From contig JBAYVF010000004.1 of NCBI GenBank assembly GCA_041674705.1, positions 38,516 to 102,515 on the forward strand: a DNA stretch of 64,000 nucleotides, written 5' to 3'. Below the pieces are notes generated by a model. It had not been told where the DNA came from. It did no database searches and saw only the letters and a list, made by a program, of their open reading frames with translations. The position numbers and the translations under genes were made by a program. This DNA is from Candidatus Omnitrophota bacterium. GTDB taxonomy: Bacteria > Omnitrophota > Omnitrophia > Omnitrophales > Aquincolibacteriaceae. Below are positions 5,688-62,099 of this stretch, one piece after another; the stretch's first letter is position 1; each line of letters starts with the position of its first letter.

Positions 5688-5939
5688 TTATTTCGCTTTA
5701 CTCTGTTCCAGCTCGTTCAGTTTTGAACGGACGGCTTCCAATTCGCTGGAAAGGTATGCTGCACGCTCTTTCAGGGTCTCGGTTCCTTCGGTCCCGCTAA
5801 CTTTTGGCTGACCTGAATCAGCCCGTTGCCTGCCGGTGAGTCCCGTGGCATAAAACTGATTTCGCCAACCGCGTCCTCGACCCATCGTCATTCCCATTCT
5901 CCTGGGTCCTGTTCCATCTCCTCCTGGCATGATATTCAC
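5688..5939 (-). CDS. DUF5320-family small protein
   Basis: N-terminal GDGTGPRRMGMTMGRGRG plus C-terminal coiled coil. Sits beside DUF134 as is typical for this family. Confidence 0.6.
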   Translation of the reverse strand: MNIMPGGDGTGPRRMGMTMGRGRGWRNQFYATGLTGRQRADSGQPKVSGTEGTETLKERAAYLSSELEAVRSKLNELEQSKAK

Positions 5940-8811: not shown

Positions 8812-11800
8812 ATGGCCACGCATCACTCGGACATCATTAGCGGGATCGTCAGTTACTTCGCCAAGTCCAAGATCACGCCTCTCATTATCGCAGCGTCGCT
8901 TATTATCGGCGTGTTTGCGGTCATCAATCTTCCCCGGGAAGAAGAGCCGCAGATCTCGGTGCCGATGTTTGATATTTTTGTCGCTTATCCGGGCGCAGAT
9001 TCCAAGGAGGTCGAGCAACGGATCGTGACCCTTGGAGAACGCAAGCTCTGGGAGATCCCGGGCGTGGAATACGTTTATTCTACGATCGAGCCGGAAGGAG
9101 CGCTGATCATTGTTCGGTTCAAGGTCGGGGAAGATGTCGAAAAGAGCCTGATCAAGCTTTACACCAAGGTCTATTCCAATCTCGATTTCCTGCCTTCTGA
9201 CGCAACGCAGCCCCTGATCAAAGTCCGTTCGATTGATGATGTGCCGATTCTGACCCTTACTTTCCATGGTAAAGATAAAGATCCTGTCGTGCTTCGCAGA
9301 ACCGTGGCAAATGTCCAGAACATCGTGAACGCGATCCCCGATGTTTCAGAAACCCGCATTACGGGTGGCCGCAAACGTCAGTTCCAGGTATTTTTTGATG
9401 AAGAAAAGCTTAAGGCCCGGCTCCTGAACCCGCTTGAGATCACGCAGATCATCCGCTCCGCGAACGTGAAACAAAGTGCCGGACATCTTGAAAGCGCGCC
9501 GGAACTTGAATCGGTGGAGGCAAATTCGTTTTTCCGCACAAAATCCGATCTTGAGAATCTCGTGGTCGGCGCGAGCGCGGGGAGCGTGGTGACGCTCAAA
9601 GACATCGCGAAAGTCGTGGACGGTCCGGATGAAGAAGAACGCGCGTCGGAAATTTTCTTTGGACCCGCATCGAAGGAAAAAGACAAAGGTCCGTTTGATG
9701 CCGTGACGCTTTCGATCTCAAAACGTAAGGGCGCGAACGCGGCCCATCTTTCCGAGGTGATCCTGCACGCGATTAAAGAGCTTCCGGAAACGACGCTTCC
9801 CAAAGATGTTGAAATGACCGTAACGCGCGATTACGGGGAGACCGCGAAAGAAAAATCCAACGAACTGCTTTTTCATATGGCGATCGCGATCTTCGGCGTG
9901 AGTGTTCTGATCGCCTGGGTGCTTGGCCTGCGCGAGTCCGGGGTGGTGGCGATCGCGATCCCGATGACCTTGGCGCTGACGCTTGCCACGTTCTATTTTC
10001 TTGGCTATACGCTGAATCGCATTACGCTTTTTGCGCTGATCTTTTCGATCGGGATCCTTGTGGATGACCCGATCGTGGATGTGGAAAATATCGTCCGGCA
10101 TCTCCGGCTTCCGGACAATAAAGGAAAATCCATTCTGGATATCACGATCGAAGCCGTGAATGAAGTCCGCAGTCCTTTGATCCTCGCGACGCTTACGGTG
10201 ATCGCAGCCATCCTGCCGATGGCTTTTGTAAGCGGACTTATGGGCCCCTACATGCGCCCCATTCCGATCGGCGCAAGCGCGGCGATGATGTTCTCGATGT
10301 TCGTGGCTTTTGTCGCGACTCCTTGGGCCGCATACCAGATTCTCGGGAGGGCGTTCGCTCAGGGGAAGCTCAAAGCCCACCACGAAGGAGAGAAAGAAGA
10401 TTTTCTGACGCATCTTTATCGCTCCTACATGAATCCGCTCATTTATAACGCGAAGATCCGGCAATGGTTCTTGATCGGTCTCGGAACCTTGCTTGCGCTT
10501 GCGGTTTTGCTTGTGCCTCTCAAGTTGGTTCGCATGAAAATGTTGCCGTTCGACAACAAGAATGAATTCCAGGTGGTGCTCAATATGCCCGAGGGGACAC
10601 CCGCGGCGAAGACTCAGGCTGTGATCACGGAGATCGCGGATTATCTCGTCACCACGCCGGAAGTCAAAGACATTGAGATGTATGTGGGCTCGGCAGCACC
10701 CTATAATTTCAACGGGCTTGTGCGTCATTACTTTCTTCGATCAAAACCTTTCCAGGCGGATCTTCAAGTGAATCTGGCAGGAAAACATCAGCGCAAACGC
10801 CAAAGCCATGATATCGCCAAAGCGGTACGCCCGAGGATCCATGAGATCGTGAAAAAACACGGCGGCCATGTTCAGGTTGCAGAAGTCCCTCCCGGCCCGC
10901 CTGTTCTTTCGACGCTCGTGCTTGAAATTTATGGACCCACGCTTGAGGGCCAAACAAAGCTTGCGAAACAGATCGAAGGATTGCTCGCTTCCAGCGAAGG
11001 CGTGACCGACATCGATACCTATATCCAGTCACCGGAAAAGCTCATGCGCCTCCGTGTGAATACGCAGAAAGCATCCTTGAATGGAATTCCGGTCGCGCAG
11101 ATCGCTGAAGTTATCACAACCGCAGTCGGGGGAAAGACCGTGGATCTGGCGCACCTTTCTGAAGAATACGAGCCGGTGGAGATCCTTTTGCGTCTGCCCA
11201 AGGAAAAGCGTGCGGGGATGGAGAGTGTTCTCAATATGACGCTTCTCTCCCGGTATGGGAACCCGATCCCGGTACGGGAACTTGTGGATATCGAAAAGGA
11301 CACCAAAGACCCCGCGATCTATCACAAGAACCTTATGCGGGTCTCATATGTGATCGCGGACGTGGCAGGGAAGTTTGAAAGCCCGGCGTATGCGATCCTG
11401 AAACTCAAAAAAGAGATCGCAAAGATGCCGGTGCCTGTTAATCAAGAGGGCCAGAAGACGCTCGACCAACTTTTTAACGGCCAGCCGCAAACGACGGATC
11501 GCTGGACCTTGAAGTGGGATGGAGAATGGCAGATCACGTACGAAGTATTCCGTGATCTCGGGATCGCGTTCGTCTTTGTGCTTCTTCTGATCTACGCGCT
11601 TGTGGTTGGGTGGTTCCAGTCGTTTAAAACGCCGTGGATCATCATGTTGCCGATTCCGCTCACGCTTGTGGGGATTTTACCTGCGCACTGGCTCGGCGGC
11701 GTGTTTTTTACTGCGACTTCCATGATCGGGATGATCGCGGGTGCCGGGATCGTGGTCCGCAATTCCATTATTCTCGTGGATTTTATCGAAATGAGACGTG

Positions 11801-12036
11801 CGGAGGGGATGCCCCTTGAAGAAGCCGTGATCGATGCCGGGGTGAAGCGCTTCAGGCCGATGCTTTTGACAGCGGCGGCGGTAGTCGTCGGCGCATCGGT
11901 CATTCTGTTCGACCCGATCTTTCAGGGTTTAGCCGTCGCCTTGATGGCGGGGGAGATCGCCTCGACGATCCTTTCTCGAACCGCAGTTCCTGTTTTCTAT
12001 TACATGATGGCTAAAAAAACAGGGACTCGGGACTAG
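8812..12036 (+). CDS. RND efflux transporter permease (AcrB/CzcA-type)
   Basis: 1074 aa. 12-TM RND architecture with large periplasmic loops. Confidence 0.85.
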   Translation: MATHHSDIISGIVSYFAKSKITPLIIAASLIIGVFAVINLPREEEPQISVPMFDIFVAYPGADSKEVEQRIVTLGERKLWEIPGVEYVYSTIEPEGALIIVRFKVGEDVEKSLIKLYTKVYSNLDFLPSDATQPLIKVRSIDDVPILTLTFHGKDKDPVVLRRTVANVQNIVNAIPDVSETRITGGRKRQFQVFFDEEKLKARLLNPLEITQIIRSANVKQSAGHLESAPELESVEANSFFRTKSDLENLVVGASAGSVVTLKDIAKVVDGPDEEERASEIFFGPASKEKDKGPFDAVTLSISKRKGANAAHLSEVILHAIKELPETTLPKDVEMTVTRDYGETAKEKSNELLFHMAIAIFGVSVLIAWVLGLRESGVVAIAIPMTLALTLATFYFLGYTLNRITLFALIFSIGILVDDPIVDVENIVRHLRLPDNKGKSILDITIEAVNEVRSPLILATLTVIAAILPMAFVSGLMGPYMRPIPIGASAAMMFSMFVAFVATPWAAYQILGRAFAQGKLKAHHEGEKEDFLTHLYRSYMNPLIYNAKIRQWFLIGLGTLLALAVLLVPLKLVRMKMLPFDNKNEFQVVLNMPEGTPAAKTQAVITEIADYLVTTPEVKDIEMYVGSAAPYNFNGLVRHYFLRSKPFQADLQVNLAGKHQRKRQSHDIAKAVRPRIHEIVKKHGGHVQVAEVPPGPPVLSTLVLEIYGPTLEGQTKLAKQIEGLLASSEGVTDIDTYIQSPEKLMRLRVNTQKASLNGIPVAQIAEVITTAVGGKTVDLAHLSEEYEPVEILLRLPKEKRAGMESVLNMTLLSRYGNPIPVRELVDIEKDTKDPAIYHKNLMRVSYVIADVAGKFESPAYAILKLKKEIAKMPVPVNQEGQKTLDQLFNGQPQTTDRWTLKWDGEWQITYEVFRDLGIAFVFVLLLIYALVVGWFQSFKTPWIIMLPIPLTLVGILPAHWLGGVFFTATSMIGMIAGAGIVVRNSIILVDFIEMRRAEGMPLEEAVIDAGVKRFRPMLLTAAAVVVGASVILFDPIFQGLAVALMAGEIASTILSRTAVPVFYYMMAKKTGTRD

Positions 12037-12073
12037 GGACTCGTTCCTCGAAAGAGTTTTGACGAGTCCCGAG
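12022..12073. repeat. REP-like GGGACTCG/CGAGTCCC palindromic element (copy 1), overlapping the RND stop codon
   Basis: GGGACTCGGGACTAGGGACTCG...CGAGTCCCGAG. The same motif family is present at 17758-17867 and 60626-60690. Confidence 0.6.
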
Positions 12074-12571: not shown

Positions 12572-12853
12572 ATGGAAATCAATATCGATAGAGTTGCGGA
12601 ACTTGCGCGGCTCAATCTTAAAGCCGAAGAAAAAAAGAAGCTCGAAAAAGACCTCGGGGCGATCCTCGACTACGTCAAAAAACTGGATAAGCTGGATACG
12701 TCCAAAGTCGAGCCCACGAGCCATGTCCTTAATATGGAGAACGTGTTCCGCCCTGATGAAGCCAAGTCTTCGGATGCCGCCTCAAAGGCCCTGGAACATG
12801 CCCCTCAGACCGAAGGCTCTTTCTTCAAAGTCCCCAAGATCGTGCAAAGATAA
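12572..12853 (+). CDS. gatC: Asp-tRNA(Asn)/Glu-tRNA(Gln) amidotransferase subunit C
   Basis: 93 aa with a typical GatC sequence (LARLNL..EE...L..IL.YV..L). Lies upstream of gatA. Confidence 0.9.
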   Translation: MEINIDRVAELARLNLKAEEKKKLEKDLGAILDYVKKLDKLDTSKVEPTSHVLNMENVFRPDEAKSSDAASKALEHAPQTEGSFFKVPKIVQR

Positions 12854-12887
12854 GTGCTAAGTGATAAGTGTTAAGCGATAGGCAGAA

Positions 12888-14321
12888 ATGAATACACCAC
12901 TCCATAAACTGACAGTGAAGGAAGCGATCGGGTTCTGCCAAAAAGGCGGGGCTCAGGAGCTTGTTCATGCTTTAACCGAGAGGGCCCAAAAGTTGAATCC
13001 TCTCGTGAACGCGTTTTTGCGGTTTAGTGCTTCCGATATCAACTTACCGCTTACCGCTGAACGCTTACCCCTCGCAGGTGTTCCCGTTTCTATTAAAGAC
13101 AACATCTGTATCGATGGCAGGGAAGTGACGTGCGCGTCGAAGATCCTGGCTAAGCACGTGCCTCCTTATAATGCCACCGTGATCGAGAAATTGAAGAGCG
13201 CGGGTGCGACACTTTTCGGCCAATGCAATATGGACGAATTCGCGTTCGGTTCTTCGTGCGAAACCTCGGCGTTCGGTCCGTGCAAAAATCCCTGGGACCT
13301 CACGCGCGTACCCGGAGGCTCGAGCGGTGGCTCTGCGGCTTCCGTCGCGGCAGACATGACGCTTGCGGCGCTCGGGAGTGACACCGGCGGTTCGATTCGT
13401 CAGCCCGCGGCGCTTTGCGGTGTGGTCGGCGTCAAGCCCACTTACGGCCGCGTGTCGCGCTACGGTCTTATCGCGTTCGGTTCAAGCTTTGACCAGATCG
13501 GTCCCATTACAAAAACCGTGGAAGATGCCGCCATTCTGCTGAATGTGCTGAGCGGCCACGACCCGAAAGATTCCACGTCCGCGTCTCAGTCCGTTCCTGA
13601 TTTTACGCAAGCGCTCAAGCGCGATGTGAAGGGCCTCAAGATCGGCCTTCCGAAAGAGTACTTCATTGAAGGGATTGATCCCCAGATCGAGAAAAGCGTT
13701 CGCGAAGCCGCGGAGATCTATAAGAAGCTCGGCGCCGAGATCAAGACGATCAGCTTGTCGCATACCGAACACTCGGTTGCGGTCTACTATATTGTGGCCG
13801 TGGCGGAAGCCAGCTCGAACCTTGGACGCTTTGATGGCGTCGAGTACGGCCTGAGGGTTCCCACAAAAGATCTTCGTGAAATGTATTTTGAAACGCGCGA
13901 CCAGGGGTTCGGCCAGGAAGCCAAGCGCCGCATTCTGCTCGGCACGTTCGTGCTCTCGGCCGGTTATTATGAGGCTTATTATCTGAAGGGCCAGAAAGTC
14001 CGTACACTTATTCGGCAGGATTTTGAGAAGGCGTTCAAGGAAGTGGACGTGATCTTGTCGCCCACCTCGCCCACGGCGGCGTTCAAGATCGGCGAAAAGT
14101 CCGCAGACCCGATCGCCATGTACCTTTCCGATATCTTTACGATCCCCGCGAACCTGGCCGGCATTCCCGCGATGTCGGTTCCGTGCGGTTTTACAAGCGG
14201 CGGTCTTCCCATAGGCTTGCAGCTTATGGCCAGGCCCTTTGACGAATCCACCATGCTCCGCGCGGCTTACGCTTTCGAGCAGGAAACCGGCATCTATAAA
14301 AAGAAACCGAAGTTAGACTAG
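12888..14321 (+). CDS. gatA: Asp-tRNA(Asn)/Glu-tRNA(Gln) amidotransferase subunit A
   Basis: Amidase signature GGSSGGSAASVAA. 477 aa. Confidence 0.95.
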   Translation: MNTPLHKLTVKEAIGFCQKGGAQELVHALTERAQKLNPLVNAFLRFSASDINLPLTAERLPLAGVPVSIKDNICIDGREVTCASKILAKHVPPYNATVIEKLKSAGATLFGQCNMDEFAFGSSCETSAFGPCKNPWDLTRVPGGSSGGSAASVAADMTLAALGSDTGGSIRQPAALCGVVGVKPTYGRVSRYGLIAFGSSFDQIGPITKTVEDAAILLNVLSGHDPKDSTSASQSVPDFTQALKRDVKGLKIGLPKEYFIEGIDPQIEKSVREAAEIYKKLGAEIKTISLSHTEHSVAVYYIVAVAEASSNLGRFDGVEYGLRVPTKDLREMYFETRDQGFGQEAKRRILLGTFVLSAGYYEAYYLKGQKVRTLIRQDFEKAFKEVDVILSPTSPTAAFKIGEKSADPIAMYLSDIFTIPANLAGIPAMSVPCGFTSGGLPIGLQLMARPFDESTMLRAAYAFEQETGIYKKKPKLD

Positions 14322-14346
14322 AGACTACAGACCAGAGACGACAGCG

Positions 14347-14562
14347 ATGACGAATAATTTGCATCATGCAGCTAAAAAGTATGTCGAAGTGATCGAGAAG
14401 ATTGAAAGAACCACCAATCCCAAAGAGTTGCAGGAACTTGAGGAGAAGCGGGTGGACCTGCACTGGAAGTTTATCGATCTGCTCAAAAAGCAGGGGATCA
14501 AATATAAAGACAGAGATCACGCAACCCGGATTGCCATACGGATTGCGCACGGAGAGTTATGA
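14347..14562 (+). CDS. Hypothetical small protein (71 aa) within the gatA-gatB insert
   Basis: ORF only. ATGA overlap with the next ORF. Lower GC than flanking genes. Confidence 0.4.
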   Translation: MTNNLHHAAKKYVEVIEKIERTTNPKELQELEEKRVDLHWKFIDLLKKQGIKYKDRDHATRIAIRIAHGEL

Positions 14563-14792
14563 CGACGCTTGAAATTGCTCGCATTTATACGGATCTGGTG
14601 AAGGCGGAGCGGGAGATTCCTGAAGCGGAGCACCAGGCCAAGGAAAAGATCAATGCTCTCCGGACCAAGTATCACGAGATCCTGATGGCAAAGATGCGGG
14701 AAGAACGGATCGATTTCTCCGATCGCTTCGACGCCGCAGCCAAGGCTTTCGATCTTGTTCGCGAAGAAGATTCAAAGTACGGTGGTAGGTAG
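14559..14792 (+). CDS. Hypothetical small protein (77 aa) within the gatA-gatB insert
   Basis: ORF only, charged and helical. Coupled to the previous ORF. Confidence 0.4.
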   Translation: MTTLEIARIYTDLVKAEREIPEAEHQAKEKINALRTKYHEILMAKMREERIDFSDRFDAAAKAFDLVREEDSKYGGR

Positions 14793-14835
14793 TTGCAGAG
14801 CATTTGTGCGGCGCCGCACGAATTGGAAATGAATT

Positions 14836-15006
14836 AGCTCGACGTCGAGCTTATTGAGATCAGGCTGGCAAGGCGGTTCGGGCAGTCGGGGGCCTTATAT
14901 CGTATATGATATACCTGCCTGCCGGCAGGCGGCAAAACAGTCGGCGCCGACTGTTTTGGCCAATAGTGTGGGGGAGCTAACCCCTCCCCACCGGACGCCG
15001 TCCGGT
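14836..15006. repeat. Cluster of five GC-rich perfect palindromes
   Basis: AGCTCGACGTCGAGCT (14836-14851). GCCTGCCGGCAGGC (14917-14930). AAAACAGTCGGCGCCGACTGTTTT (14934-14957). GGGGAG-ctaacc-CTCCCC (about 14970-14989). ACCGGACGCCGTCCGGT (14990-15006). Confidence 0.65.
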
Positions 15007-15024
15007 TGACAAGAATGGAGAGAG

Positions 15025-15591
15025 ATGAAGAAAGAGCCATTTGTGCCAAGCTTAGGCTCTGATGTAATTAAGAAGTTTTGTCAGTTGTGTGATTGGGCGT
15101 ATCAATCATGGCTAATGCAACGGACTCTTTTTGATGATAACCCTAATCTTTATGTTCTGGAAAAGGATAGTTTTCAGAGATTTTTTAGTCTTCTTAATAA
15201 TGTTACGCTCGAATATGCCCTTCAGCAGCTCATAAAGCTTCATGATCCGGCAATTATGAATGGCAAGATTAATCTGACGATTAATTGCATAGTCCAATAT
15301 GGCGACTGGGAAAAGAAGGTGAGGACGGATTTAAAAAGTCTTAGCGACGAGTTAGAGTTATTAGCCGGATGCCTGAGAGCGGCGAGGAATAAAGTTCTTT
15401 CTCATAACGATTTTCTGGCGTGCATGGAAAATGTGCCGATCGGTTGTTTTGAGGAAAACAAAGATAGGGATTATTTTGATAAGCTCCAAGAATTTGTAAA
15501 TATTGTTCATGATAAAACGATCGGCGGGCCTTATCCTTTTGATAGTTTGGTGCAAAGTTACACCCGCGAATTTTTGAGTGCGCTGAAATAG
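15025..15591 (+). CDS. Hypothetical protein, low-GC cargo gene; possible HEPN-like Rx5H motif
   Basis: 188 aa, AT-rich codon usage. Motif RNKVLSH near residue 120. No confident family match. Confidence 0.5.
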   Translation: MKKEPFVPSLGSDVIKKFCQLCDWAYQSWLMQRTLFDDNPNLYVLEKDSFQRFFSLLNNVTLEYALQQLIKLHDPAIMNGKINLTINCIVQYGDWEKKVRTDLKSLSDELELLAGCLRAARNKVLSHNDFLACMENVPIGCFEENKDRDYFDKLQEFVNIVHDKTIGGPYPFDSLVQSYTREFLSALK

Positions 15592-15633
15592 CATTAGTAA
15601 CTGCGGCTATTCCTGTGCGCTAAAGTAATCAAA

Positions 15634-16197
15634 ATGATTCAAAGGGGAAGCCTGGTGGACGACAAATTGTTGAATGACATAGCAAAAAGCTTTGTTGTGA
15701 CGGCGCTTAGCTATACCAACCAGAACTGGCGGACATTTTGTCAGTCTTGGAGCAAGGCGTTGAAGGCTGATTTGTCAGGAGACGCTGAGGCTAAACTAGA
15801 ATTTTCGATGGCCATTATCGGGTTGGGCTTGTCACGCATTAAACGAGATTCTTTGGAAAATACTGCATCGCGTGAAGTTGGCAAGGTGCAGGCTGAGAAG
15901 ATTAGAGATTATTTGAGGGTGATGTCGGGCAACTTAGGTGATGAGCCATGGGAAAAGGCAATGAAGTATCATAATGCTTATGAAAATTGTCCCAATTTCG
16001 ATTCGAGATTTGATAAACCTCCTTTTGAAAGCCGCGTGGAAGCAATAGCCGTGGTTTTATTCGATTCTTTTAAAATAGCGCATCTTATTAAAATAGGAGG
16101 TCGCATCTCTTACGAACCTCTTACGCTTATGATGCTTGCTGGTACAGTTTTGGCAGCTTACCAAGACTGTAAAAACACATTTCAGAGTTTATTATGA
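15634..16197 (+). CDS. Hypothetical protein, low-GC cargo gene
   Basis: 187 aa, AT-rich. Partner of the previous ORF. No recognisable domain. Confidence 0.5.
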
Positions 16198-16325
16198 ACT
16201 ACGAACCTGTGATCGGACTTGAGGTCCACGTACAGCTGAAAACAAAGAGCAAGCTGTTTTGTTCGTGCTTCCGCCACACAGCGCGGCGGACAGGCGACGG
16301 AATTCGGTTAAGGAATGAATTATGA
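16194..16325 (+). pseudogene. Diverged duplicate of the gatB 5' end (25 gatB codons, then unrelated sequence to a stop)
   Basis: [25 protein letters not shown] matches gatB residues 1-25 ([25 protein letters not shown]) with about 22 synonymous nt differences. Its ATG overlaps the stop of the upstream cargo ORF. Confidence 0.7.
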
Positions 16326-17773
16326 ATTATGAGCCCGTGATAGGTTTGGAAGTGCATGTTCAATTGAAGACAAGATCAAAGTTGTTTTGTTCTTGTTCCA
16401 CCACTTTTGGCGAGGAAGGTAATAAGAATACATGCCCCGTGTGTCTCGGCTGGCCGGGGTCATTGCCGGTACTGAACGAAGCGGCGCTGAAACTCGGGAT
16501 TCGGGTGGGGCTTGCGCTTAATTGCAAGATCGCCGAGCGGCTCAAGTTCGACCGGAAGAATTATTTTTATCCGGATCTTCCCAAAGCCTACCAGATCTCG
16601 CAATTCGATATGCCGGTGAACGGCCGCGGCGAACTTCTCATCGAAACAAAAGATGCGGAAGGAAAAATGATCGAGCGAAAGATCGGGATTACTCGTGCGC
16701 ACCTGGAAGAAGATGCCGGGAAGCTTCTGCATGAAGGCATCGCGGACGGCAGTCTCGTGGACTACAACCGCGGCGGTATCCCGCTTCTTGAGATCGTCTC
16801 CGAACCGGATCTCGGAAGCCCGCAAGAGGCGCATGACTATCTCACCGCGCTCAAGGCCATCCTTCAATATGTGGAAGTGAGCGACTGCGATATGGAAAAG
16901 GGGAGCCTTCGCTGCGACGCGAACGTGTCGGTGCGGCCCGTGAGCCAGGAAAAACTCGGGACCAAGGTCGAGATCAAGAACCTGAACTCGTTCAAGATGG
17001 TGGCGCGAGCGATCCAGTACGAGATCGAACGGCAGACGGAAGCGCTTGAACGCGGGGAGGCGATCGTCCAGGAAACGCGACTTTGGAGTGACGCCGAGGG
17101 CATGACGGTTTCCATGCGTTCCAAAGAAGATGCCCACGACTACCGTTATTTTCCCGAGCCCGACCTTGTGCCTTTCACCTTGTCGCGCGAAGTCGTAGAG
17201 GCGATCCGGAAGACTTTGCCGGAATTGCCGCTTGAGCGCGCGAAGCGGTTCATCAAAGAATTCGGCATTCCGGAATATGATGCCTATGTGCTGGTGCAGG
17301 AGAAAAAACTGGCCAACTATTTTGAATCCTGCATTCGCGAAGGCGCCGCGCCGAAGCTCGCGAGCAATTGGATCCAAAATGAACTCTTGGCGCTGCTGAA
17401 TGTGAAAAACATCGCGATCGATGAGTGCCTGGTTTCGCCCCACGCGCTTGCCGGACTGATCCGGCTGGTCGAAAAAGGGATCGTAAGCGGGAAAACCGCT
17501 AAAGATGTTTTTCAGGAAATGGCGGCGACCGGTAAAACGGCGGACGTAATCGTTAAAGAAAAAGGCCTCACGCAGGTTTCGGATACCGGGCTCATTGAAA
17601 AAGCCGTTGAAAAAGCGATCGCCGCGAATCCCACGGCCGTCGCGGAATTCAAGGCCGGCAAACAAAAAGCCCTCGGCGCGCTGGTGGGTGCCGTTATGAA
17701 AGAAACCGGCGGCAAGGCGAATCCGAAAGTGGTTAATGAAATTCTCATTAACAAGCTGGGGACTCGTAGCTAG
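16322..17773 (+). CDS. gatB: Asp-tRNA(Asn)/Glu-tRNA(Gln) amidotransferase subunit B
   Basis: 483 aa, canonical GatB. Its last codons (GTRS*) are supplied by the REP-like element. Confidence 0.95.
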
Positions 17774-17867
17774 GGACTCGCACCTCGTGAAAAAAACTAC
17801 TCGTACCTCGTACCTCGTATCTCGGGACTCGAAAAAACGAGGAACTAGTCCCGAGTCCCGAGTCCCG
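17758..17867. repeat. REP-like GGGACTCG/CGAGTCCC element (copy 2), with CTCGTAC x3 and GTCCCGA x3 tandem units
   Basis: GGGACTCG x3, CTCGTACCTCGTACCTCG, CGAGGAACTAGTCCCGAGTCCCGAGTCCCG. Overlaps the gatB 3' end and the nominal tsaD 5' extension. Confidence 0.6.
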
Positions 17868-17876
17868 CTCTACACC

Positions 17877-18875
17877 TTGGGGGTAGAAACTTCCTGCGAC
17901 GAAACGTCGTGTTCGGTGCTGAAAGGCAAAGACACGATCCTCTCCAACGTGGTTTCCTCCAGTCTTTTCCGGCACAAGAAATTCGGCGGCGTGGTGCCCG
18001 AGATCGCGTCCCGGCACTGCATGGAACAGATCCAGTGCGTGTTCGAAGAAGCACTTCGACAGGCTCAGTGCAAGGCGCAGGATTTAGATCTGATCGCGGT
18101 CACGCAGGGCCCGGGTCTTATCGGTTCGCTTCTCGTGGGAGTCTCCTTCGCAAAGTCGTTGGCCTATCAACTTGGAATTCCCATCGTGGGTGTGAACCAT
18201 ATGGAAGCGCATCTCGTCGCGAATTTTTTCGGGACTCCGGAACCCAAACGCTATATCGGGCTCCTTGTTTCCGGCGGGCATACGATGCTCACGTTCTGCG
18301 AAAAAGGGAAGATCCATATTCTTGGCGAGACGGTGGATGACGCGGTCGGCGAAGCATACGACAAAGTCGCGAAGATCATGGGTTTGAGTTATCCGGGCGG
18401 GCCTATCCTTGATAAACTTGCGAAAGAGGGGAACCCGTGCGCTTTTCATTTTACCAGGCCGAAGCAGGACGAGCGTTTCAACTTCAGTTTCAGCGGCGTG
18501 AAAACGGCCGTGCTTTATCAATTTCAGGATCCGAAAACGGGGAAGCCGAATCCAGCGGCGCCTTCGGTGAAAGATATGGCGGCGAGTTTTCAGCACGCGG
18601 TGATCGGATGGCTTGTGGAAAAAGCGCTCGACGCGGCGGAATTTAAAAAGGCTTTCGACATCGTGGTGGGCGGCGGCGTGAGCGCGAATTCTTATTTGCG
18701 GGAGAAGCTCACGCGGGACGGCGCCGCAAAAGGCATCAAGGTCTGGTTCCCGCCGTTCGTGCTGTCGACCGACAACGCAGCCATGATCGCACGCCGGGGT
18801 TTTGAGCTTTTTAAACGAGGCTGTTGTTCTCCGCTCAAGATGACGGGAAATCCCGCTTTAGCTTTGGGCCGCTGA
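17877..18875 (+). CDS. tsaD: tRNA N6-adenosine threonylcarbamoyltransferase TsaD (Kae1/YgjD family)
   Basis: GVETSCDETS and HMEAHL motifs. The ORF-track start at 17736 is rejected. TTG at 17877 is the nearest in-frame start before the conserved N-terminus, so the start is uncertain. Confidence 0.8.
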   Translation: MGVETSCDETSCSVLKGKDTILSNVVSSSLFRHKKFGGVVPEIASRHCMEQIQCVFEEALRQAQCKAQDLDLIAVTQGPGLIGSLLVGVSFAKSLAYQLGIPIVGVNHMEAHLVANFFGTPEPKRYIGLLVSGGHTMLTFCEKGKIHILGETVDDAVGEAYDKVAKIMGLSYPGGPILDKLAKEGNPCAFHFTRPKQDERFNFSFSGVKTAVLYQFQDPKTGKPNPAAPSVKDMAASFQHAVIGWLVEKALDAAEFKKAFDIVVGGGVSANSYLREKLTRDGAAKGIKVWFPPFVLSTDNAAMIARRGFELFKRGCCSPLKMTGNPALALGR

Positions 18876-18887
18876 TATTTTAAAGTC

Positions 18888-18966
18888 GTACTTGGTCGTT
18901 GGTACATAGTACTTAGAAAAACAAAAACTGTCGTTACACTAAGTACCAAGTGCTATGTACCATGTA
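18888..18966 (+). promoter_or_regulatory. Long imperfect hairpin in the mgtC leader
   Basis: GTACTTGGT..TGGTACATAGTACTTAG pairs with CTAAGTACCAAGTGCTATGTACCA. About 17 bp of stem with a 7-nt bulge, directly upstream of the Shine-Dalgarno AAAGGAGG. Confidence 0.4.
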
Positions 18967-18985
18967 CTCATCAAAGGAGGTTTTT

Positions 18986-22078: not shown

Positions 22079-22086
22079 CAAAGTAT

Positions 22087-22157
22087 TGCCCCGTGGTGAA
22101 ATGGTATCACACTGCCCTTTGGAGGCAAGGTTTCTGGTTCGAGCCCAGACGGGGCAG
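22087..22157 (+). tRNA. tRNA-Gln (anticodon UUG)
   Basis: Hand-folded cloverleaf. Acceptor TGCCCCG/CGGGGCA with U1:A72 and G73. U8. D-arm GTGA-AATGGTA-TCAC. Anticodon loop CTTTGGA. T-arm TCTGG-TTCGAGC-CCAGA. No CCA is encoded. Confidence 0.8.
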
Positions 22158-22415
22158 ATTTTAAGAATCAAAGAACGGTTTTAAGGGAGCCCTTTTCCGC
22201 CTGAGGCGGATTCGTCCGCAAGGCGAATCCGATGATGAACGGATTCGCCTCTGGCGAAGGAGGCAAGGTTTCTGGTTCGAGCCCAGACGGGGCAGATTTT
22301 AAGAATCAAAGAACGGTTTAAGGGAGCCCTTTTCCGCCTGAGGCGGATTCGTCCGCAAGGCGAATCCGATGATGGACGGATTCGCCTCTGGCGAAGGAGG
22401 CAAGGTTTCTGGTTC
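22121..22415 (+). repeat. Tandem 138/137-bp repeat (about 2.15 copies), each unit starting with the 3' half of tRNA-Gln (GGAGGCAAGGTTTCTGGTTCGAGCCCAGACGGGGCAG)
   Basis: Units begin at 22121, 22259 and 22396. The last unit is truncated. Units contain several small GC hairpins (CCGCC-TGA-GGCGG, CGGATTCG..CGAATCCG). Confidence 0.75.
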
Positions 22416-58009: not shown

Positions 58010-58177
58010 GAGTTATCGAGAGGAAAACGATGTTCAGAAGCTTAAATCATAACCTTGAGCAGTGTCAACGGATATGTTACAGTGTGGCCTCAAACCGTAC
58101 AGCGTTTCGCGTACGGAGTACGGCGAAGGGTATTCCCTAATACGCCGTACGCCTTACTCCTTACTCGGAGATTTTTC

Positions 58178-60110: not shown

Positions 60111-60539
60111 CTAGAACTTGAAGAGTTTGATCTTGGCGGCGTCGCCGGAACCTTTTTCGGCTTGTTCAATCTCGTAACTGTCATCTTTCGCGTAGCCGAG
60201 GGACGCGACCTTTTTAACGCCTTTAATGGTGTTATCGACGACCTTTTCCCCGGCCTGTTGCGTTCCGTCCAGGGTTCCAACGACGGGCTTTTCGCTCATG
60301 GTGCCGTGGGCCGTATCTCCGAGGGTGTCCTTGACGTTGTCATAGGTTACTTCTTTGATCCCCGTCGCAAAATTCTTCGCCGGATGGCGTTTTTCTTGGG
60401 CTTGTGTATCTTGATCCATCGCTTTTTGGACCTTTTCCTGCGCGCGAGCCTCTTGATCATACTGGTCCGGTTTTCGCGCCATGCCGACATTTGCCAGGGC
60501 AATGACAAGAACAAGGATAACGAGAATTCTCTTTTCCAT
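60111..60539 (-). CDS. Hypothetical secreted or membrane-anchored protein, Lys/Glu/Asp-rich
   Basis: N-terminal hydrophobic segment ILVILVLVIALANVGMA. 142 aa. No family match. Confidence 0.5.
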   Translation of the reverse strand: MEKRILVILVLVIALANVGMARKPDQYDQEARAQEKVQKAMDQDTQAQEKRHPAKNFATGIKEVTYDNVKDTLGDTAHGTMSEKPVVGTLDGTQQAGEKVVDNTIKGVKKVASLGYAKDDSYEIEQAEKGSGDAAKIKLFKF

Positions 60540-60625: not shown

Positions 60626-60690
60626 GGGACTCGTACCTCGGGACTCGTTTTGGTTCCTCGTTTTTACGAGTCCCTAGTCCCGAGTCCCGG
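60626..60690. repeat. REP-like GGGACTCG/CGAGTCCC element (copy 3)
   Basis: GGGACTCGTACCTCGGGACTCG...CGAGTCCCTAGTCCCGAGTCCCG, upstream of hom. Confidence 0.6.
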
Positions 60691-60803
60691 CTCTTCGGTT
60701 GGCGCCGAAGGGCTGTTTGATTTTTGCTTTGAGGTAAGTTATACTGCGCTGCCTTCGTTAAGGTTTGTCATCACTGAACTTAGGACATTTACTCAGGAGA
60801 AAT

Positions 60804-62099
60804 ATGAAAAAGATCAGAATCGGACTTCTCGGGTTGGGACAGATCGGTACCGGACTCTATGAGATCCTTACGGCGAAGAAAGCTCTATTCGCCCGTCAGC
60901 TCGGGGTGTCTTTTGAGCTCGCGCGGATCGCAGAAAAGTATCCCCAGCGGAATAAGAAGATTCGTCCTACGAAACACCTCATGACGAAAGACGCTTTCGC
61001 GGTAGTGCGGGATCCATCCATTGACGTCGTGGTCGAGCTGATTGGCGGTACGACGGTCGCCCGTCAACTCATCAAGGAAGCCCTCAGGAATGGCAAGCAT
61101 GTGGTGACCGCGAACAAGGCTCTTTTGGCCGAGCATGGCGATGAGATCTTTGAACTCGCGCACCGGATGAAACGCTGGCTTTGTTTTGAAGCGAGTGTGG
61201 GCGGCGGCATTCCGTGCATCAAGGCGCTTCGCGAAGGTCTTGTGTCCAACCGGATCGATTCGGTTCACGCCATTATCAACGGGACCACGAATTATATTTT
61301 GACCCAGATGACCGCCAAAGGTATGAGCTTCGCGGAAGCCTTGGCCGGCGCGCAAAAGTTGGGGTTTGCCGAGGCGAATCCTTTTCTGGATGTGAGTGGC
61401 CACGATGCCGCGCACAAGCTGGCGATCCTCGCGCGTTTCGCGTTCGGCGGGAAAGTGAAGTTCAAGGACATCTACTGCGAAGGGATCACCGAGATCTCAA
61501 GCGATGACATCGCCTTTGCCAAGGAATTCGGGTACACGATCAAACTTCTCGCGATCGCCAAGCGATCCGGGGCGGGGATGGAAGCGCGCGTTCAGCCGAC
61601 GCTTTTGCCGAACTCGCATATTCTCGCCAATGTGAATGGATCGTTCAACGCGATCCTGATGCGCGGCGACGAGGTGGGCGATGTGCTCTTTTACGGCCGC
61701 GGGGCGGGACCGCATCCGACCGCAAGCGCCGTGATCGCGGATCTGGTGGATATCGCCAAAGCCGGAGCCGCAGGGCCCGTCGAAGACCGGTTCATTGTCC
61801 GGGCGCTCGGGAAAACGATTCCGGTGAAAAGCATTTTTTCGATCCTGTCGCGTTACTACTTGAGGTTCTATGTAATCGATGAGCCCAGTGTGCTCGCGAA
61901 TATCTCGAAGATCCTCGGGAAATACAAGATCAGCATCTCGGATGTGATGCAGCGCGAGCGCAGCGCCGGTCGCGCGGTGCCGCTTATCCTTTTAACGCAT
62001 CATACGCACGAAAAAAATCTCCGGGCCGCCGTTCGCGAGATCGATCGTATGTCTTGCATCAAAGGAAGGACTCAGGTCATCCGGATGGAAGAGGCTTAA
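60804..62099 (+). CDS. hom: Homoserine dehydrogenase
   Basis: NAD-binding N-terminus [12 protein letters not shown] plus C-terminal ACT domain. Start moved to the ATG after the AGGAGA Shine-Dalgarno. Confidence 0.9.

Follow-up and report, generated by a model that had tools for sequence, protein, structure and literature searches.

Three loci in a 64,000-nucleotide stretch of DNA from an uncultivated member of the Omnitrophota (the window) are heptanucleotide SSR palindromes of the GGGACTC type, a known but poorly understood class of repeat. The explanation that best accounts for them overall, and that we consider likely, is that they arose locally, created new gene ends and probably caused tsaD to restart at a GTG codon at 17787. 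Two proteins have acquired new short tails from the heptamer repeats, (G)TRS in GatB and TGTRD in the RND pump. Repeat counts and scans of the source DNA refer to the 64-kb window alone, and the coordinates of the features are collected in Table 1. Relatives are designated by L numbers.

Table 1. Genes, heptamer elements and other heptamer arrays in the window
Feature	Position	Strand	Basis
RND (ACR_tran) efflux pump gene	8812..12036	+	translation; Pfam ACR_tran on syntenic L121 and L122 genes
Element A, heptamer hairpin	12022..12073		sequence; TRF period 7; RNA fold
Array GATAAGT GCTAAGT GATAAGT GTTAAGC GATAGGC	12845..12885	+	TRF; period-7 scan
Array AGACTAG AGACTAC AGACCAG AGACGAC	14312..14345	+	TRF; period-7 scan
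Perfect tandem duplication of heptamer ATGAATT, holding the gatB start codon	16315..16328	+	TRF
gatB	16322..17773	+	translation; 120 homologues, Candidatus Omnitrophota names
Element B, hairpin	17758..17867		sequence; RNA fold; orthologous copies
tsaD, proposed start GTG	17787..18875	+	comparative evidence; GTG 13 nt past gatB stop
Heptamer hairpin, unit xxGTACx, A-rich loop, tsaD stop to mgtC	18885..18968		fold -25.8 kcal/mol, z -3.6; period-7 scan
Heptamer hairpin, unit G(C/A)GTACG / CGTACGC	58100..58170		fold -35.2 kcal/mol, z -4.3; Pfam
Element C, heptamer hairpin	60626..60689		sequence; RNA fold; ORFs; Pfam

The sequence GGGACTCG occurs 13 times in the window, counting both strands, against 2.52 ± 1.66 expected (13 was reached in 0 of 100 shuffles), and all but one of these copies fall within three clusters (12022-12070, 17759-17866 and 60626-60688). 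The two-unit pattern GGACTCGNNNCTMG is found eight times, with 0.01 expected. TACCTCG by itself is not enriched in the window (5 against 3.8 expected) and is relevant solely within the arrays. Searching the window for GGGACTCG with one mismatch gave no extra clusters, and a pair at 5774-5844 from that search was rejected as a heptamer element. The unit is a heptamer at all three loci, as TRF assigns period 7 at 12022-12043, 17800-17824, 17847-17867 and 60667-60689. Heptanucleotide SSRs are defined by two or more tandem 7-nt units (≥14 bp) in excess of chance, as seen here.

The three loci share a layout in which a G-rich heptamer arm comes first and is followed by a loop and an inverted C-rich arm. 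The order of units is also similar: GGGACTCG, a variant unit, GGACTCG, xxCCTCG, the loop and then CGAGTCC units. In element A, the G-arm (12022-12050) reads GGGACTCG GGACTAG GGACTCG TTCCTCG and the C-arm (12059-12073) reads GACGAGTCCCGAG, with 12036-12045 pairing with 12061-12070 in the core stem. Element B consists of a 5' arm (17759-17788; GGGACTCG TAGCTAG GGACTCG CACCTCG), an interior (17789-17836) with an A-run and tandem CTACTCG TACCTCG TACCTCG TATCTCG GGACTCG, and a 3' arm (17837-17866; ACGAGGAA CTAGTCC CGAGTCC CGAGTCC C). The G-arm of element C (60626-60647) is GGGACTCG TACCTCG GGACTCG and its C-arm (60666-60689) is CGAGTCC CTAGTCC CGAGTCC CG; a separate hairpin with a T-run follows at about 60690-60735. 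Elements A and B lie between co-directional genes and begin on or just before the upstream stop, whereas element C sits between divergent genes, a minus-strand ORF starting at 60539 and homoserine dehydrogenase starting at 60804.

A long hairpin is predicted at every locus in the RNA of either strand, with z-scores from -2.2 to -5.1. The fold energies for the two strands are -24.7/-22.4 kcal/mol for A (z -2.2 for the first), -45.2/-48.5 kcal/mol for B (z -3.9 for the first, with 0 of 200 shuffles equally stable) and -35.1/-36.5 kcal/mol for C (z -3.9/-5.1). Sense and antisense energies show no consistent asymmetry, so they are silent on selection acting on the RNA of one strand. In three relatives (L123, L136 and L147) the arms are decayed and fold no better than shuffles. 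A search of the window against Rfam 15 at the gathering score matched only a tRNA-Gln, with no match at the elements. The first-pass annotation had described a repeat family at three loci, combining direct and inverted units and able to form hairpins; the sequence at all three ranges is as it described, and the counts, TRF and folds bear the description out.

Both upstream genes end inside an element. The RND ORF ends ...AKKTGTRD*, and its last five codons (TGTRD) and TAG stop (12034-12036) lie within element A. Likewise, gatB ends ...INKLGTRS* with its last codons, (G)TRS, and TAG stop (17771-17773) in the 5' arm of element B; the encoded protein is the same 483 aa as NCBI record MFA7254933.1. 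Each stop is the TAG of a CTAG variant unit in an identical repeat register. Because pure GGGACTC is stop-free in every frame, the upstream gene reads into the array up to a TAG-bearing variant.

Relatives reveal what preceded these tails. At the junction of element A, L122 carries an orthologous element, L121, L131 and L134 carry different heptamers, and L132 carries none. The element-free L132 pump ends ...AKKGEKP* with an ATGA stop/start overlap, whereas in element-bearing relatives AKK is followed by a tail that tracks the local heptamer (TGTRD, TRD, SS, NSTA or NSKA). GatB orthologues that lack the repeat terminate in ...KKLG*, ...KKLQG* or ...KKLS*. Wherever the DNA was compared (L121, L122, L127, L137 and L203), GatB tails of the GTR[SDT] type are accompanied by the repeat, and L204 has the repeat with a variant tail, ETRS. 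Only T-R-S of the GatB tail is certainly new, because the glycine may be ancestral. The ends of the element-free proteins thus confirm the earlier claim that the element donates C-terminal codons to gatB and the RND pump gene, and a check for distant GTR[DS] C-termini lacking the repeat found none wherever the DNA was compared. A GGGACTC-type unit is also present inside gatB of L130 and L135, where an in-frame array is tolerated within GatB.

Element B also bears on the start of tsaD. The tsaD ORF (17736..18875) spans the entire element, and three pipelines place its start differently: at TTG 17877 (NCBI, 332 aa), at ATG 17736 (ENA, 379 aa) and later (JGI, 319 aa). The element has replaced an ancestral gatB-tsaD junction, 'TAA A GTG', and at the position of that ancestral start the window has GTC. 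In 6 of 13 element-bearing relatives there is no ATG, GTG or TTG within 15 codons of LGIETS, and the sister genome L127 has TTA at the position of the window's TTG. The tsaD frame runs through the element without a stop at 12 of 13 loci, against 2 and 5 of 13 for the other frames. This is weaker evidence than it looks, because heptamer arrays rarely hold stops anyway; the A-rich loops carry TAA in frames other than that of tsaD. A GTG or ATG is kept at CCTC-GTG-AA in the window, L127, L122, L203 and L204, and the distances from this codon to a conserved Pro codon (in L122, to a local ATG two codons further on) are 78, 57, 87 and 102 nt, all multiples of three. Most predicted TsaD proteins in close relatives have N-terminal extensions of this kind. 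The Shine-Dalgarno-like AGGGA ahead of GTG 17787 is weak.

On this comparative evidence, GTG 17787, in frame within element B, is most likely the true start and is the best supported of the candidates, and the element probably moved the start of the essential tsaD gene as the old start was lost. The window TsaD may nonetheless be a short protein beginning MGVETS, in keeping with the shorter NCBI and JGI calls. The upstream extension, which spans 47 codons up to a conserved Leu-Tyr-Thr (46 in the first-pass annotation), had been dismissed as spurious. That view may be right insofar as ATG 17736 overshoots, but it is probably wrong in part, since the best-supported start lies inside the element. 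With GTG 17787 as the start, roughly 27 residues at the N-terminus of TsaD would come from the interior and 3' arm of element B. Because translation most likely starts there, both segments would be translated as a basic, Ser/Pro/Arg-rich extension whose predicted sequence includes KKTTRTSYLVSR, with TSYLVSR, GTSPESR and VPLYTLGVETSCDETSCSVLK as predicted tryptic peptides. Ribosome hopping in the manner of T4 gene 60, from one GGG codon flanking element B to the other, was also considered and rejected, as relatives with other units lack matching take-off and landing codons.

How the elements came to occupy these sites is a separate matter. The first-pass annotation called them REP-like, and a REP- or MITE-like mobile element would be a palindromic unit copied by a RAYT or other transposase and inserted three times. 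One could point to the same units in similar order at the three loci, to the unit within gatB of L130 and L135, and to the element-free relatives, against which the elements look like insertions at stop/start overlaps. The REP and BIME sequences of E. coli, Pseudomonas and Stenotrophomonas have a conserved 20-40 nt, a head tetranucleotide and no internal 7-nt periodicity, number in the hundreds per genome and are associated with RAYTs; MITEs carry the terminal inverted repeats of a parent IS and a target-site duplication. Like REPs, the heptamer elements are short and extragenic palindromes that form mRNA hairpins between co-transcribed genes and, by analogy, may also stabilise 3' ends or modulate the downstream cistron. 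However, they vary in length and have no fixed consensus; in an alignment of the three copies only the heptamer core is shared, and arm lengths and loops differ. There is no REP head or other terminal motif, no flanking direct repeat or target-site duplication, and no RAYT or other transposase domain by Pfam in the 10 neighbouring ORFs tested. Furthermore, orthologous sites in sister genomes carry different heptamers, and simple tandem arrays of the identical unit are found in unrelated phyla. Spread by transposition is therefore very unlikely, and the REP label does not hold in the family sense.

A local origin fits better with the tandem repeats at large. Of the tandem periods, only 7 is clearly over-represented in the source genome and its close relatives. 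The window has eight tandem arrays of period 7 and at most one of any other period between 4 and 13. In 221 kb from close relatives there are 35 period-7 arrays, compared with 0-8 for other periods, whereas relatives at 63-72% GatB identity have none in 117 kb. Perfect 7-mer tandem duplications number eight in the window, with 2.0 expected, and one of them lies on the gatB start codon.

Several window arrays use other units (Table 1). The GATAAGT array begins on the gatC stop TAA (12851-12853), ends just ahead of the gatA ATG at 12888 and has no inverted arm. In relatives this junction is an overlap, CGATGA, which both ends of the array still resemble, and an origin in situ is plausibly shown only for this array. 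The AGACTAG array holds the gatA stop TAG (14319-14321) in its first unit and extends to an ATG at 14347. Orthologous AGACnnn arrays follow gatA in L122 and L132, the AGAC core being kept in the three species and the other three bases varying. The hairpin at 58100-58170 lies just upstream of an ABC exporter gene (ATG 58178). At orthologous junctions, sister genomes have hairpins of quite different heptamers, or nothing. The elements would thus have risen locally rather than by transposition, through 7-bp tandem duplication or slippage and then an inverted copy of the array. Such events would amount to a habit of the lineage, in which 7-nt-periodic arrays of several unit types fill the junctions of formerly abutting or overlapping genes.

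The GGGACTC unit itself is widespread. A scan of a genome collection found (GGGACTC)n arrays in many phyla, at 120 or more genome loci; among the matches listed, most are in Xanthomonadales, Acidobacteriota and Gemmatimonadota, the modal size is four units, and no locus matches the window by blastn. Also among the matches listed, 46 arrays have an inverted partner downstream and two have one upstream, a G-arm-first bias that corresponds to the layout of all three window copies.

Orthologous copies of element B are present at L121, L127, L122, L137, L203 and L204. Element B is identical to the L127 copy at 108 of 109 positions, against 80.9% identity in the gatB flank and 59% at gatB third codon positions, and its first 32 nt match L122 at 31 positions and L204 at 30. 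Instead of selection, the cause of the 108/109 identity could be a recent recombination or conversion event in the element. L121 and L127, whose flanks are identical, differ within the element; L121 ends there, and the difference may be an assembly effect.

A 7-bp slippage bias specific to the lineage could have produced the elements as functionless, neutral by-products, tolerated where no gene is broken. Units turn over fast, presence varies at orthologous junctions, arms have decayed in L123, L136 and L147, fresh 7-bp duplications occur and an in-frame array persists inside GatB, as neutrality would have it. It does not readily explain why element B is nearly unchanged between lineages with such divergent third codon positions, or why frame and start codon are kept across length variants. 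The G-arm-first bias among the matches listed likewise needs a directional mechanism or selection. A wholly neutral account is thus unlikely.

If the elements are more than by-products, they could act as transcription terminators or operon-boundary markers, a possibility that the first-pass annotation raised. They are stable GC-rich hairpins placed right behind stop codons, and element C is followed by the T-run hairpin. However, the 3' arms continue into GCAACGGGGG, CTCTACACC and GGCTCTTCGG, with no U-tract on the sense strand. A terminator and promoter scan showed no enrichment: it gave 11 terminator-like sites where 12.0 were expected, and none of its sense-strand calls falls on an element. 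Essential tsaD lies directly downstream without promoter space of its own, and element C lies between divergent genes. The genes flanking A and B overlap or abut in relatives and are therefore co-translated operon partners, so that these elements fall within formerly overlapping co-directional pairs. We regard termination as extremely unlikely.

The spacing of the unit raises the alternative of G-quadruplex (G4) regulatory elements. GGGACTC has G3N4 spacing, the modal array of four units in other phyla (among the matches listed) equals the G4 minimum, and Rehm et al. (2015; PMC4692102) observed G4 formation in vitro for related units; a G4 role has been proposed for the Xanthomonas repeat GGGAATC. 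No window copy has four G3 tracts in G4 spacing, though; there are at most three per arm, broken by TACCTCG or TAGCTAG, and a canonical motif search gave no overlap with the three elements. The complementary arm favors a duplex hairpin, and the arrays of the GATAAGT, AGACTAG and GTAC types lack G-tracts altogether. A G4 role is thus highly improbable.

Alternatively, the arrays could be binding sites for a protein that reads the 7-nt register, either a DNA-binding protein or a post-transcriptional regulator of the sort that MacGregor (2015; PMC4679880) proposed for another heptamer, TAACTGA of Beggiatoaceae. The extreme nucleotide conservation of element B against saturated synonymous sites would fit, as would the AGAC core kept downstream of gatA in three species and the arrays directly upstream of start codons. 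Yet unit sequences are completely different from one junction to the next and, at one junction, from one sister genome to another, which is hard to reconcile with a single binding specificity. We consider this reading quite unlikely.

Translational coupling is our best guess for the function of element B. In coupling hairpins of phages and operons, the ribosome on the upstream ORF melts a stem that hides the downstream start. Similarly, the stem of element B includes the stop codon of gatB, the AGGGA that resembles an SD sequence and the putative GTG start, all of which would pair with the 3' arm. A ribosome ending gatB would melt this stem, so that translation of tsaD would be coupled to that of gatB. 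The ancestral gatB-tsaD junction, with its 1-nt gap between stop and start, implies that coupling existed there already. We know of no coupling stem built of heptamer repeats. In its fullest form, the proposal is that element B has been exapted: it provides the GatB stop and tail and the tsaD start, its 3' arm is translated, its stem serves as the coupling switch, and it has consequently stayed near-invariant (108/109) despite saturated synonymous sites. We advance this combination only tentatively, as a possibility that may well prove wrong. No start site is sequestered in elements A and C, and the copies therefore need not share a single function.

In many bacteria, no long simple repeats are more common than heptamer repeats. 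Here they rewrite the ends of conserved proteins (GatB, the RND pump, GatA and GatC), and they are able to shift an essential gene's start and to mislead gene callers, as seen by the three TsaD starts that three pipelines gave for the same DNA. If coupling and exaptation hold, element B would offer a first concrete function for the repeat class and a slippage route to coding sequence, and 7-bp slippage would more generally generate new protein ends and start sites where the genes of an operon meet. The relatives provide a comparative series for such questions, with the same operon junctions found without a repeat, with different units, and with one type that is near-invariant.

No paper on heptamer repeats in Omnitrophota came up in a literature search, but several systems in other bacteria are comparable. 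Long heptanucleotide SSRs in prokaryotes were described by Mrazek et al. (2007; as cited in PMC4679880 and PMC4692102), with polymerase slippage proposed as their cause. As far as those accounts go, these SSRs and the STRR heptamers of Calothrix PCC 7601 share the lineage-specific excess of period 7 and are direct arrays, whereas most of the arrays here come with an inverted partner and are positioned precisely at stop/start junctions.

The TAACTGA heptamers of marine Beggiatoaceae, cyanobacteria and Bacteroidetes occur as 169 direct sets and one indirect set, with direct repeats a few nucleotides upstream of starts and a suspected role in translation (MacGregor 2015; PMC4679880). Similar arrays in the window are those at 12845-12885 and 14312-14345. 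However, the TAACTGA system uses one fixed unit genome-wide, whereas the arrays here are of many unit types and often form hairpins.

The closest likeness in unit is to the GGGAATC or (GGGANTN)n repeats of Xanthomonas and the GGGGA(C/T)T repeats of Nostoc (PMC4692102), which share the 7-nt unit; GGGACTC fits GGGANTN. Rehm et al. (2015; PMC4692102) reported (GGGANTN)n arrays to be 89-93% intergenic, at a mean of 28 nt past the upstream ORF, with 70-75 convergent inverted pairs per genome. Elements A and B have in common with these a site right after the upstream ORF between co-directional genes, while element C, between divergent genes, belongs to the rare category; all three copies form inverted pairs with the G-arm first. 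They fit GGGANTN but hold no GGGAATC, of which the rule of Rehm et al. asks at least one per array. A run of at least four uninterrupted G-tracts is preferred in the literature, though not required; the window copies have at most three per arm, with TACCTCG and TAGCTAG interleaved. Finally, unlike the Rehm repeats, the window copies overlap coding ends and supply the stop codons, and one copy seems to be partly translated.

The first-pass annotation described a repeat family at three loci in the window (elements A, B and C; see table), and the sequence at all three coordinates agrees. The motif GGGACTCG occurs 13 times on both strands of the window against 2.5 expected, a number reached in no shuffle, and 12 of the 13 copies are clustered (12022-12070, 17759-17866 and 60626-60688). 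No further cluster was found in the window, even with one mismatch allowed. The two-unit pattern GGACTCGNNNCTMG is present eight times against 0.01 expected. The repeat unit is a heptamer (period 7 by Tandem Repeats Finder, TRF), and the layout is the same at each locus: a G-rich 5' arm of GGGACTC and its variants (TACCTCG, TTCCTCG, CACCTCG, TAGCTAG and GGACTAG) leads through a loop to a 3' arm of inverted units (CGAGTCC, CTAGTCC). Folding bears out the predicted long hairpins, which can form at all three loci as RNA from either strand (-22 to -48 kcal/mol; z -2.2 to -5.1).

The elements have no match in Rfam. The label 'REP-like' is not supported, as heptamers are all that the copies have in common: neither ends nor loops are conserved and there are no target duplications, which also speaks against MITEs. 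A scan of ten neighbouring ORFs gave no transposase domain. Nor do the elements appear to be terminators marking operon boundaries, as had been suggested, since the 3' arms are not followed by a U-tract and terminator-like sites are not enriched. G-quadruplex motifs were also considered; none of the three copies has four G-tracts in G4 spacing, and a duplex hairpin is therefore the likely structure of the window copies. Directly after element C, upstream of a homoserine dehydrogenase gene, a separate GC-rich hairpin (GGCTCTTCGG...CCGAAGGGC, then TTTGATTTTTG) occupies 60690-60735. Terminator-like and lying between divergent genes, it could mark a small transcript or leader.

The genes run in the order outer-membrane factor, RND pump, ygaP-like, gatC, gatA, a small cassette, gatB, tsaD, mgtC and hisG, an order that is syntenic in relatives. 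The best GatB and TsaD homologues come from Candidatus Omnitrophota MAGs; MFA7254933.1 at NCBI is identical to the window GatB and MFA7254934.1 to a short form of its TsaD. In an element-free relative (the contig encoding protein P0002) gatA and gatB overlap, whereas a ~2-kb cassette (14347-16197) lies between them in the window; it comprises four small ORFs, one of them an HEPN_AbiU2 abortive-infection protein (15025-15591). The same gap holds other cargo in three relatives' loci (L122 8115-9957; L203 785-2420; L204 634-2400), including Fic, Trypsin_2 and DUF2971. Defence or toxin-type genes seem to insert preferentially at this site, which in the window is bounded by heptamer arrays. Further downstream lies tRNA-Gln (22086-22158), and after it a 137-bp unit that starts with the tRNA's 3' portion is present in 2.1 tandem copies (to 22415); these look like repeated attachment-site remnants of integrated elements.

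Junctions were compared in the DNA of 80 GatB loci from metagenomes and a few contigs fetched by protein. Two relatives (L125, L128) lack the element between gatB and tsaD and read TAA A GTG CCT TTT TAT ACC, giving a TsaD that begins MPFYTLGIETS; more distant element-free relatives place an ATG three codons 5' of LGIETS. Hairpins of GGGACTC units occupy the junction in the window, L121, L127, L122, L137, L203 and L204, and other relatives have hairpins of other units: TACGGGG/CCGTACT (L126), GGCGTAC (L134), TTCGGGG and TCCGGAG types (L129, L132), CGCAACG/CGTTGCG (L131), GGAACGN/CGTTTCC (L130) and others. Most of the relatives' hairpins fold well (z -2 to -4.7), and a few have decayed arms. In all element-bearing junctions the 5' arm begins on or right after the gatB stop codon, the sense strand of the loop is rich in A, and the 3' arm extends into the conserved Pro-x-Tyr codons of tsaD.

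The upstream genes end within the repeat. The RND pump ORF (8812..12036) ends ...AKKTGTRD* and gatB (16322..17773) ends ...INKLGTRS*, both stops being the TAG of a CTAG variant unit in the same repeat register. Pure GGGACTC repeats contain a stop codon in none of the frames, as can be read off the sequence, so the upstream gene reads through until a variant unit supplies TAG. At the RND-ygaP junction, L132 retains an overlap (...AKKGEKP* with ATGA). In relatives with an element, AKK is kept and the residues after it (TGTRD, TRD, SS, NSTA or NSKA) depend on the local heptamer, and the old GGAGAAACC ATG, displaced downstream, now provides the ygaP Shine-Dalgarno (SD) sequence and start. Among 120 GatB homologues most end ...KKLG*, ...KKLQG* or ...KKLS*, and the Gly of the GatB tail may be ancestral. 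The proposal that the element donates the C-terminal codons of both proteins, and with them the stops, stands, because the repeat is present in all GatB homologues ending GTR[SDT] or ETRS for which DNA could be obtained. The GatB lengths of 492-539 aa in relatives stem from N-terminal over-extension, not from C-terminal tails. Two relatives carry an in-frame (GGGACTC)4 array inside gatB itself (L130 2346-2392; L135 4648-4676), which swaps DAEGKMIER for KGLGTRDSGLETK in an otherwise invariant region and shows that tolerant protein loops are open to invasion by the repeat.

The N-terminal extension of tsaD had been dismissed as spurious; it is probably a real coding change. Three public annotations of the gene (17736-18875) give 332 aa (NCBI, from TTG 17877), 319 aa (JGI) and 379 aa (ENA). 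The ancestral start has been lost: where the ancestral GTG aligns, the window has GTC and other element-bearing relatives have GCT, ACG, ACT, GCC or TCC, and in 6 of 13 of these no ATG, GTG or TTG lies 15 codons or fewer from LGIETS. In L127, a sister genome whose element is nearly identical, TTA stands at the position of TTG 17877. The tsaD frame is stop-free across the element at 12 of 13 loci, against 2 and 5 of 13 for the other two frames; L131, the one locus where it is not, carries an SD and ATG of its own. Counted as ~11 independent element types, 10 of them open, and with a background open rate of ~0.27, this has a probability near 2e-5 by our own arithmetic, which treats the frames as comparable. 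Furthermore, all GGGACTC-type elements keep a GTG or ATG within CCTC-GTG-AA, 13 nt past the gatB stop. In four length variants this codon lies 78, 57, 87 and 102 nt from the conserved Pro codon (in L122, from a local ATG two codons beyond the Pro codon), all multiples of three, so that frame and start codon are conserved while the element changes length. Predicted TsaD proteins of close relatives mostly carry extensions of 10-55 residues rich in Lys, Arg, Ser and Pro, and one database protein (P0137) matches the window TsaD read from GTG 17787. Gene callers may be misled by stop-free heptamer arrays. We somewhat favour GTG 17787 as the most likely start, in which case the interior and 3' arm of element B would be translated.

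Element B is also conserved beyond its surroundings. Over the final 900 nt of gatB, the window and L127 share 80.9% identity, and only 59% at third codon positions, whereas the 109-nt element is identical at 108/109 positions. Its first 32 nt, which hold the GatB tail, stop, an AGGGA stretch, a spacer and GTG, match the window at 31/32 in L122 and 30/32 in L204, with gatB identities of 77% and 73%. This argues for nucleotide-level selection or recent exchange of the element. One caution concerns L121 (11380-11541), which is identical to L127 over 900 nt of flank and differs over the last ~40 nt within the element, inside which its contig ends; the difference could be strain variation or a repeat-caused assembly break. 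Once the mRNA folds, the element B stem would pair three features with the 3' arm, namely the stop codon of gatB, the weak SD-like AGGGA and the GTG. Ribosomes that finish gatB would melt this stem and make initiation possible 13 nt downstream, restoring the coupling formerly given by the ancestral 1-nt gap. Elements A and C hide no start site, and may be only intercistronic or 5'-leader hairpins, or functionless.

Among tandem periods in the window, only period 7 is clearly over-represented, with 8 arrays against 0-1 for each other period from 4 to 13 at a single threshold, and there are 8 perfect 7-mer tandem duplications where 2.0 are expected.

Positions of repeat features in the window
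Feature	Position	Location
Element A	12022-12073	RND pump end
Element B	17758-17867	gatB-tsaD
Element C	60626-60689	
GATAAGT x5 array	12845-12885	gatC stop to gatA start
AGACTAG, AGACTAC, AGACCAG, AGACGAC array	14312-14345	gatA stop to next start
xxGTACx hairpin	18885-18968	3' of tsaD
GTACG-type hairpin	58100-58170	5' of ABC exporter gene
ATGAATT perfect tandem duplication	16315-16328	includes gatB start codon

The ATGAATT duplication looks like a fresh 7-bp event; its upstream copy opens an out-of-frame mini-ORF of 5 codons. Within gatA, a period-7 stretch (13037-13073; CTTACCG CTTACCG CTGAACG CTTACCC) encodes ...NLPLTAERLPLAG, is conserved in L131 (3854-3883), and may represent an ancient array within the gene or simply chance. 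In close relatives (77-90% GatB identity), 221 kb contain 35 arrays of period 7 and 0-8 of other periods, and 117 kb from relatives with 63-72% identity contain no period-7 array; the excess is therefore lineage-specific. In relatives gatC and gatA overlap at CGATGA, which the GATAAGT array still resembles at both ends, pointing to local tandem duplication. Given the variation at the gatB-tsaD, RND-ygaP and gatC-gatA junctions, we infer a local origin for the arrays, from 7-bp duplication or slippage together with an inverted copy, and not from transposition.

Heptanucleotides are the commonest long simple repeats in prokaryotes, and polymerase slippage has been proposed (Mrazek et al. 2007, as summarised in PMC4679880 and PMC4692102); TAACTGA heptamers lie directly 5' of start codons (MacGregor 2015). 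Xanthomonas has G-rich GGGAATC or heterogeneous (GGGANTN)n repeats and Nostoc GGGGA(C/T)T; these are 89-93% intergenic, a mean of 28 nt past the upstream ORF and mostly between co-directional genes, with 70-75 convergent inverted pairs per genome and four units preferred (Rehm et al. 2015, PMC4692102). They form G-quadruplexes in vitro, and the authors identified no function (PMC4692102). A scan of one genome per species with GGGACTCG-NNNCTMG-GGACTCG found at least 120 loci in Xanthomonadales, Acidobacteriota, Gemmatimonadota, Planctomycetota, Omnitrophota and other groups. Among the matches listed are 139 (GGGACTC)n arrays from many phyla, with a modal size of 4 units and the inverted partner downstream in 46 and upstream in only 2. 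All three window copies share this G-arm-first layout. The strong bias suggests a directional mechanism for the inverted copy; speculatively, template switching might produce it where the G-rich array stalls replication. We found no paper on such repeats in Omnitrophota. The window elements are real members of a known heptamer repeat class, for which this phylum is new, and their GGGACTC unit matches the GGGANTN consensus of Rehm et al. The class is already known; new and testable here are the series of junctions, the altered ends of the proteins and the hairpin, which is nearly invariant and apparently translated.
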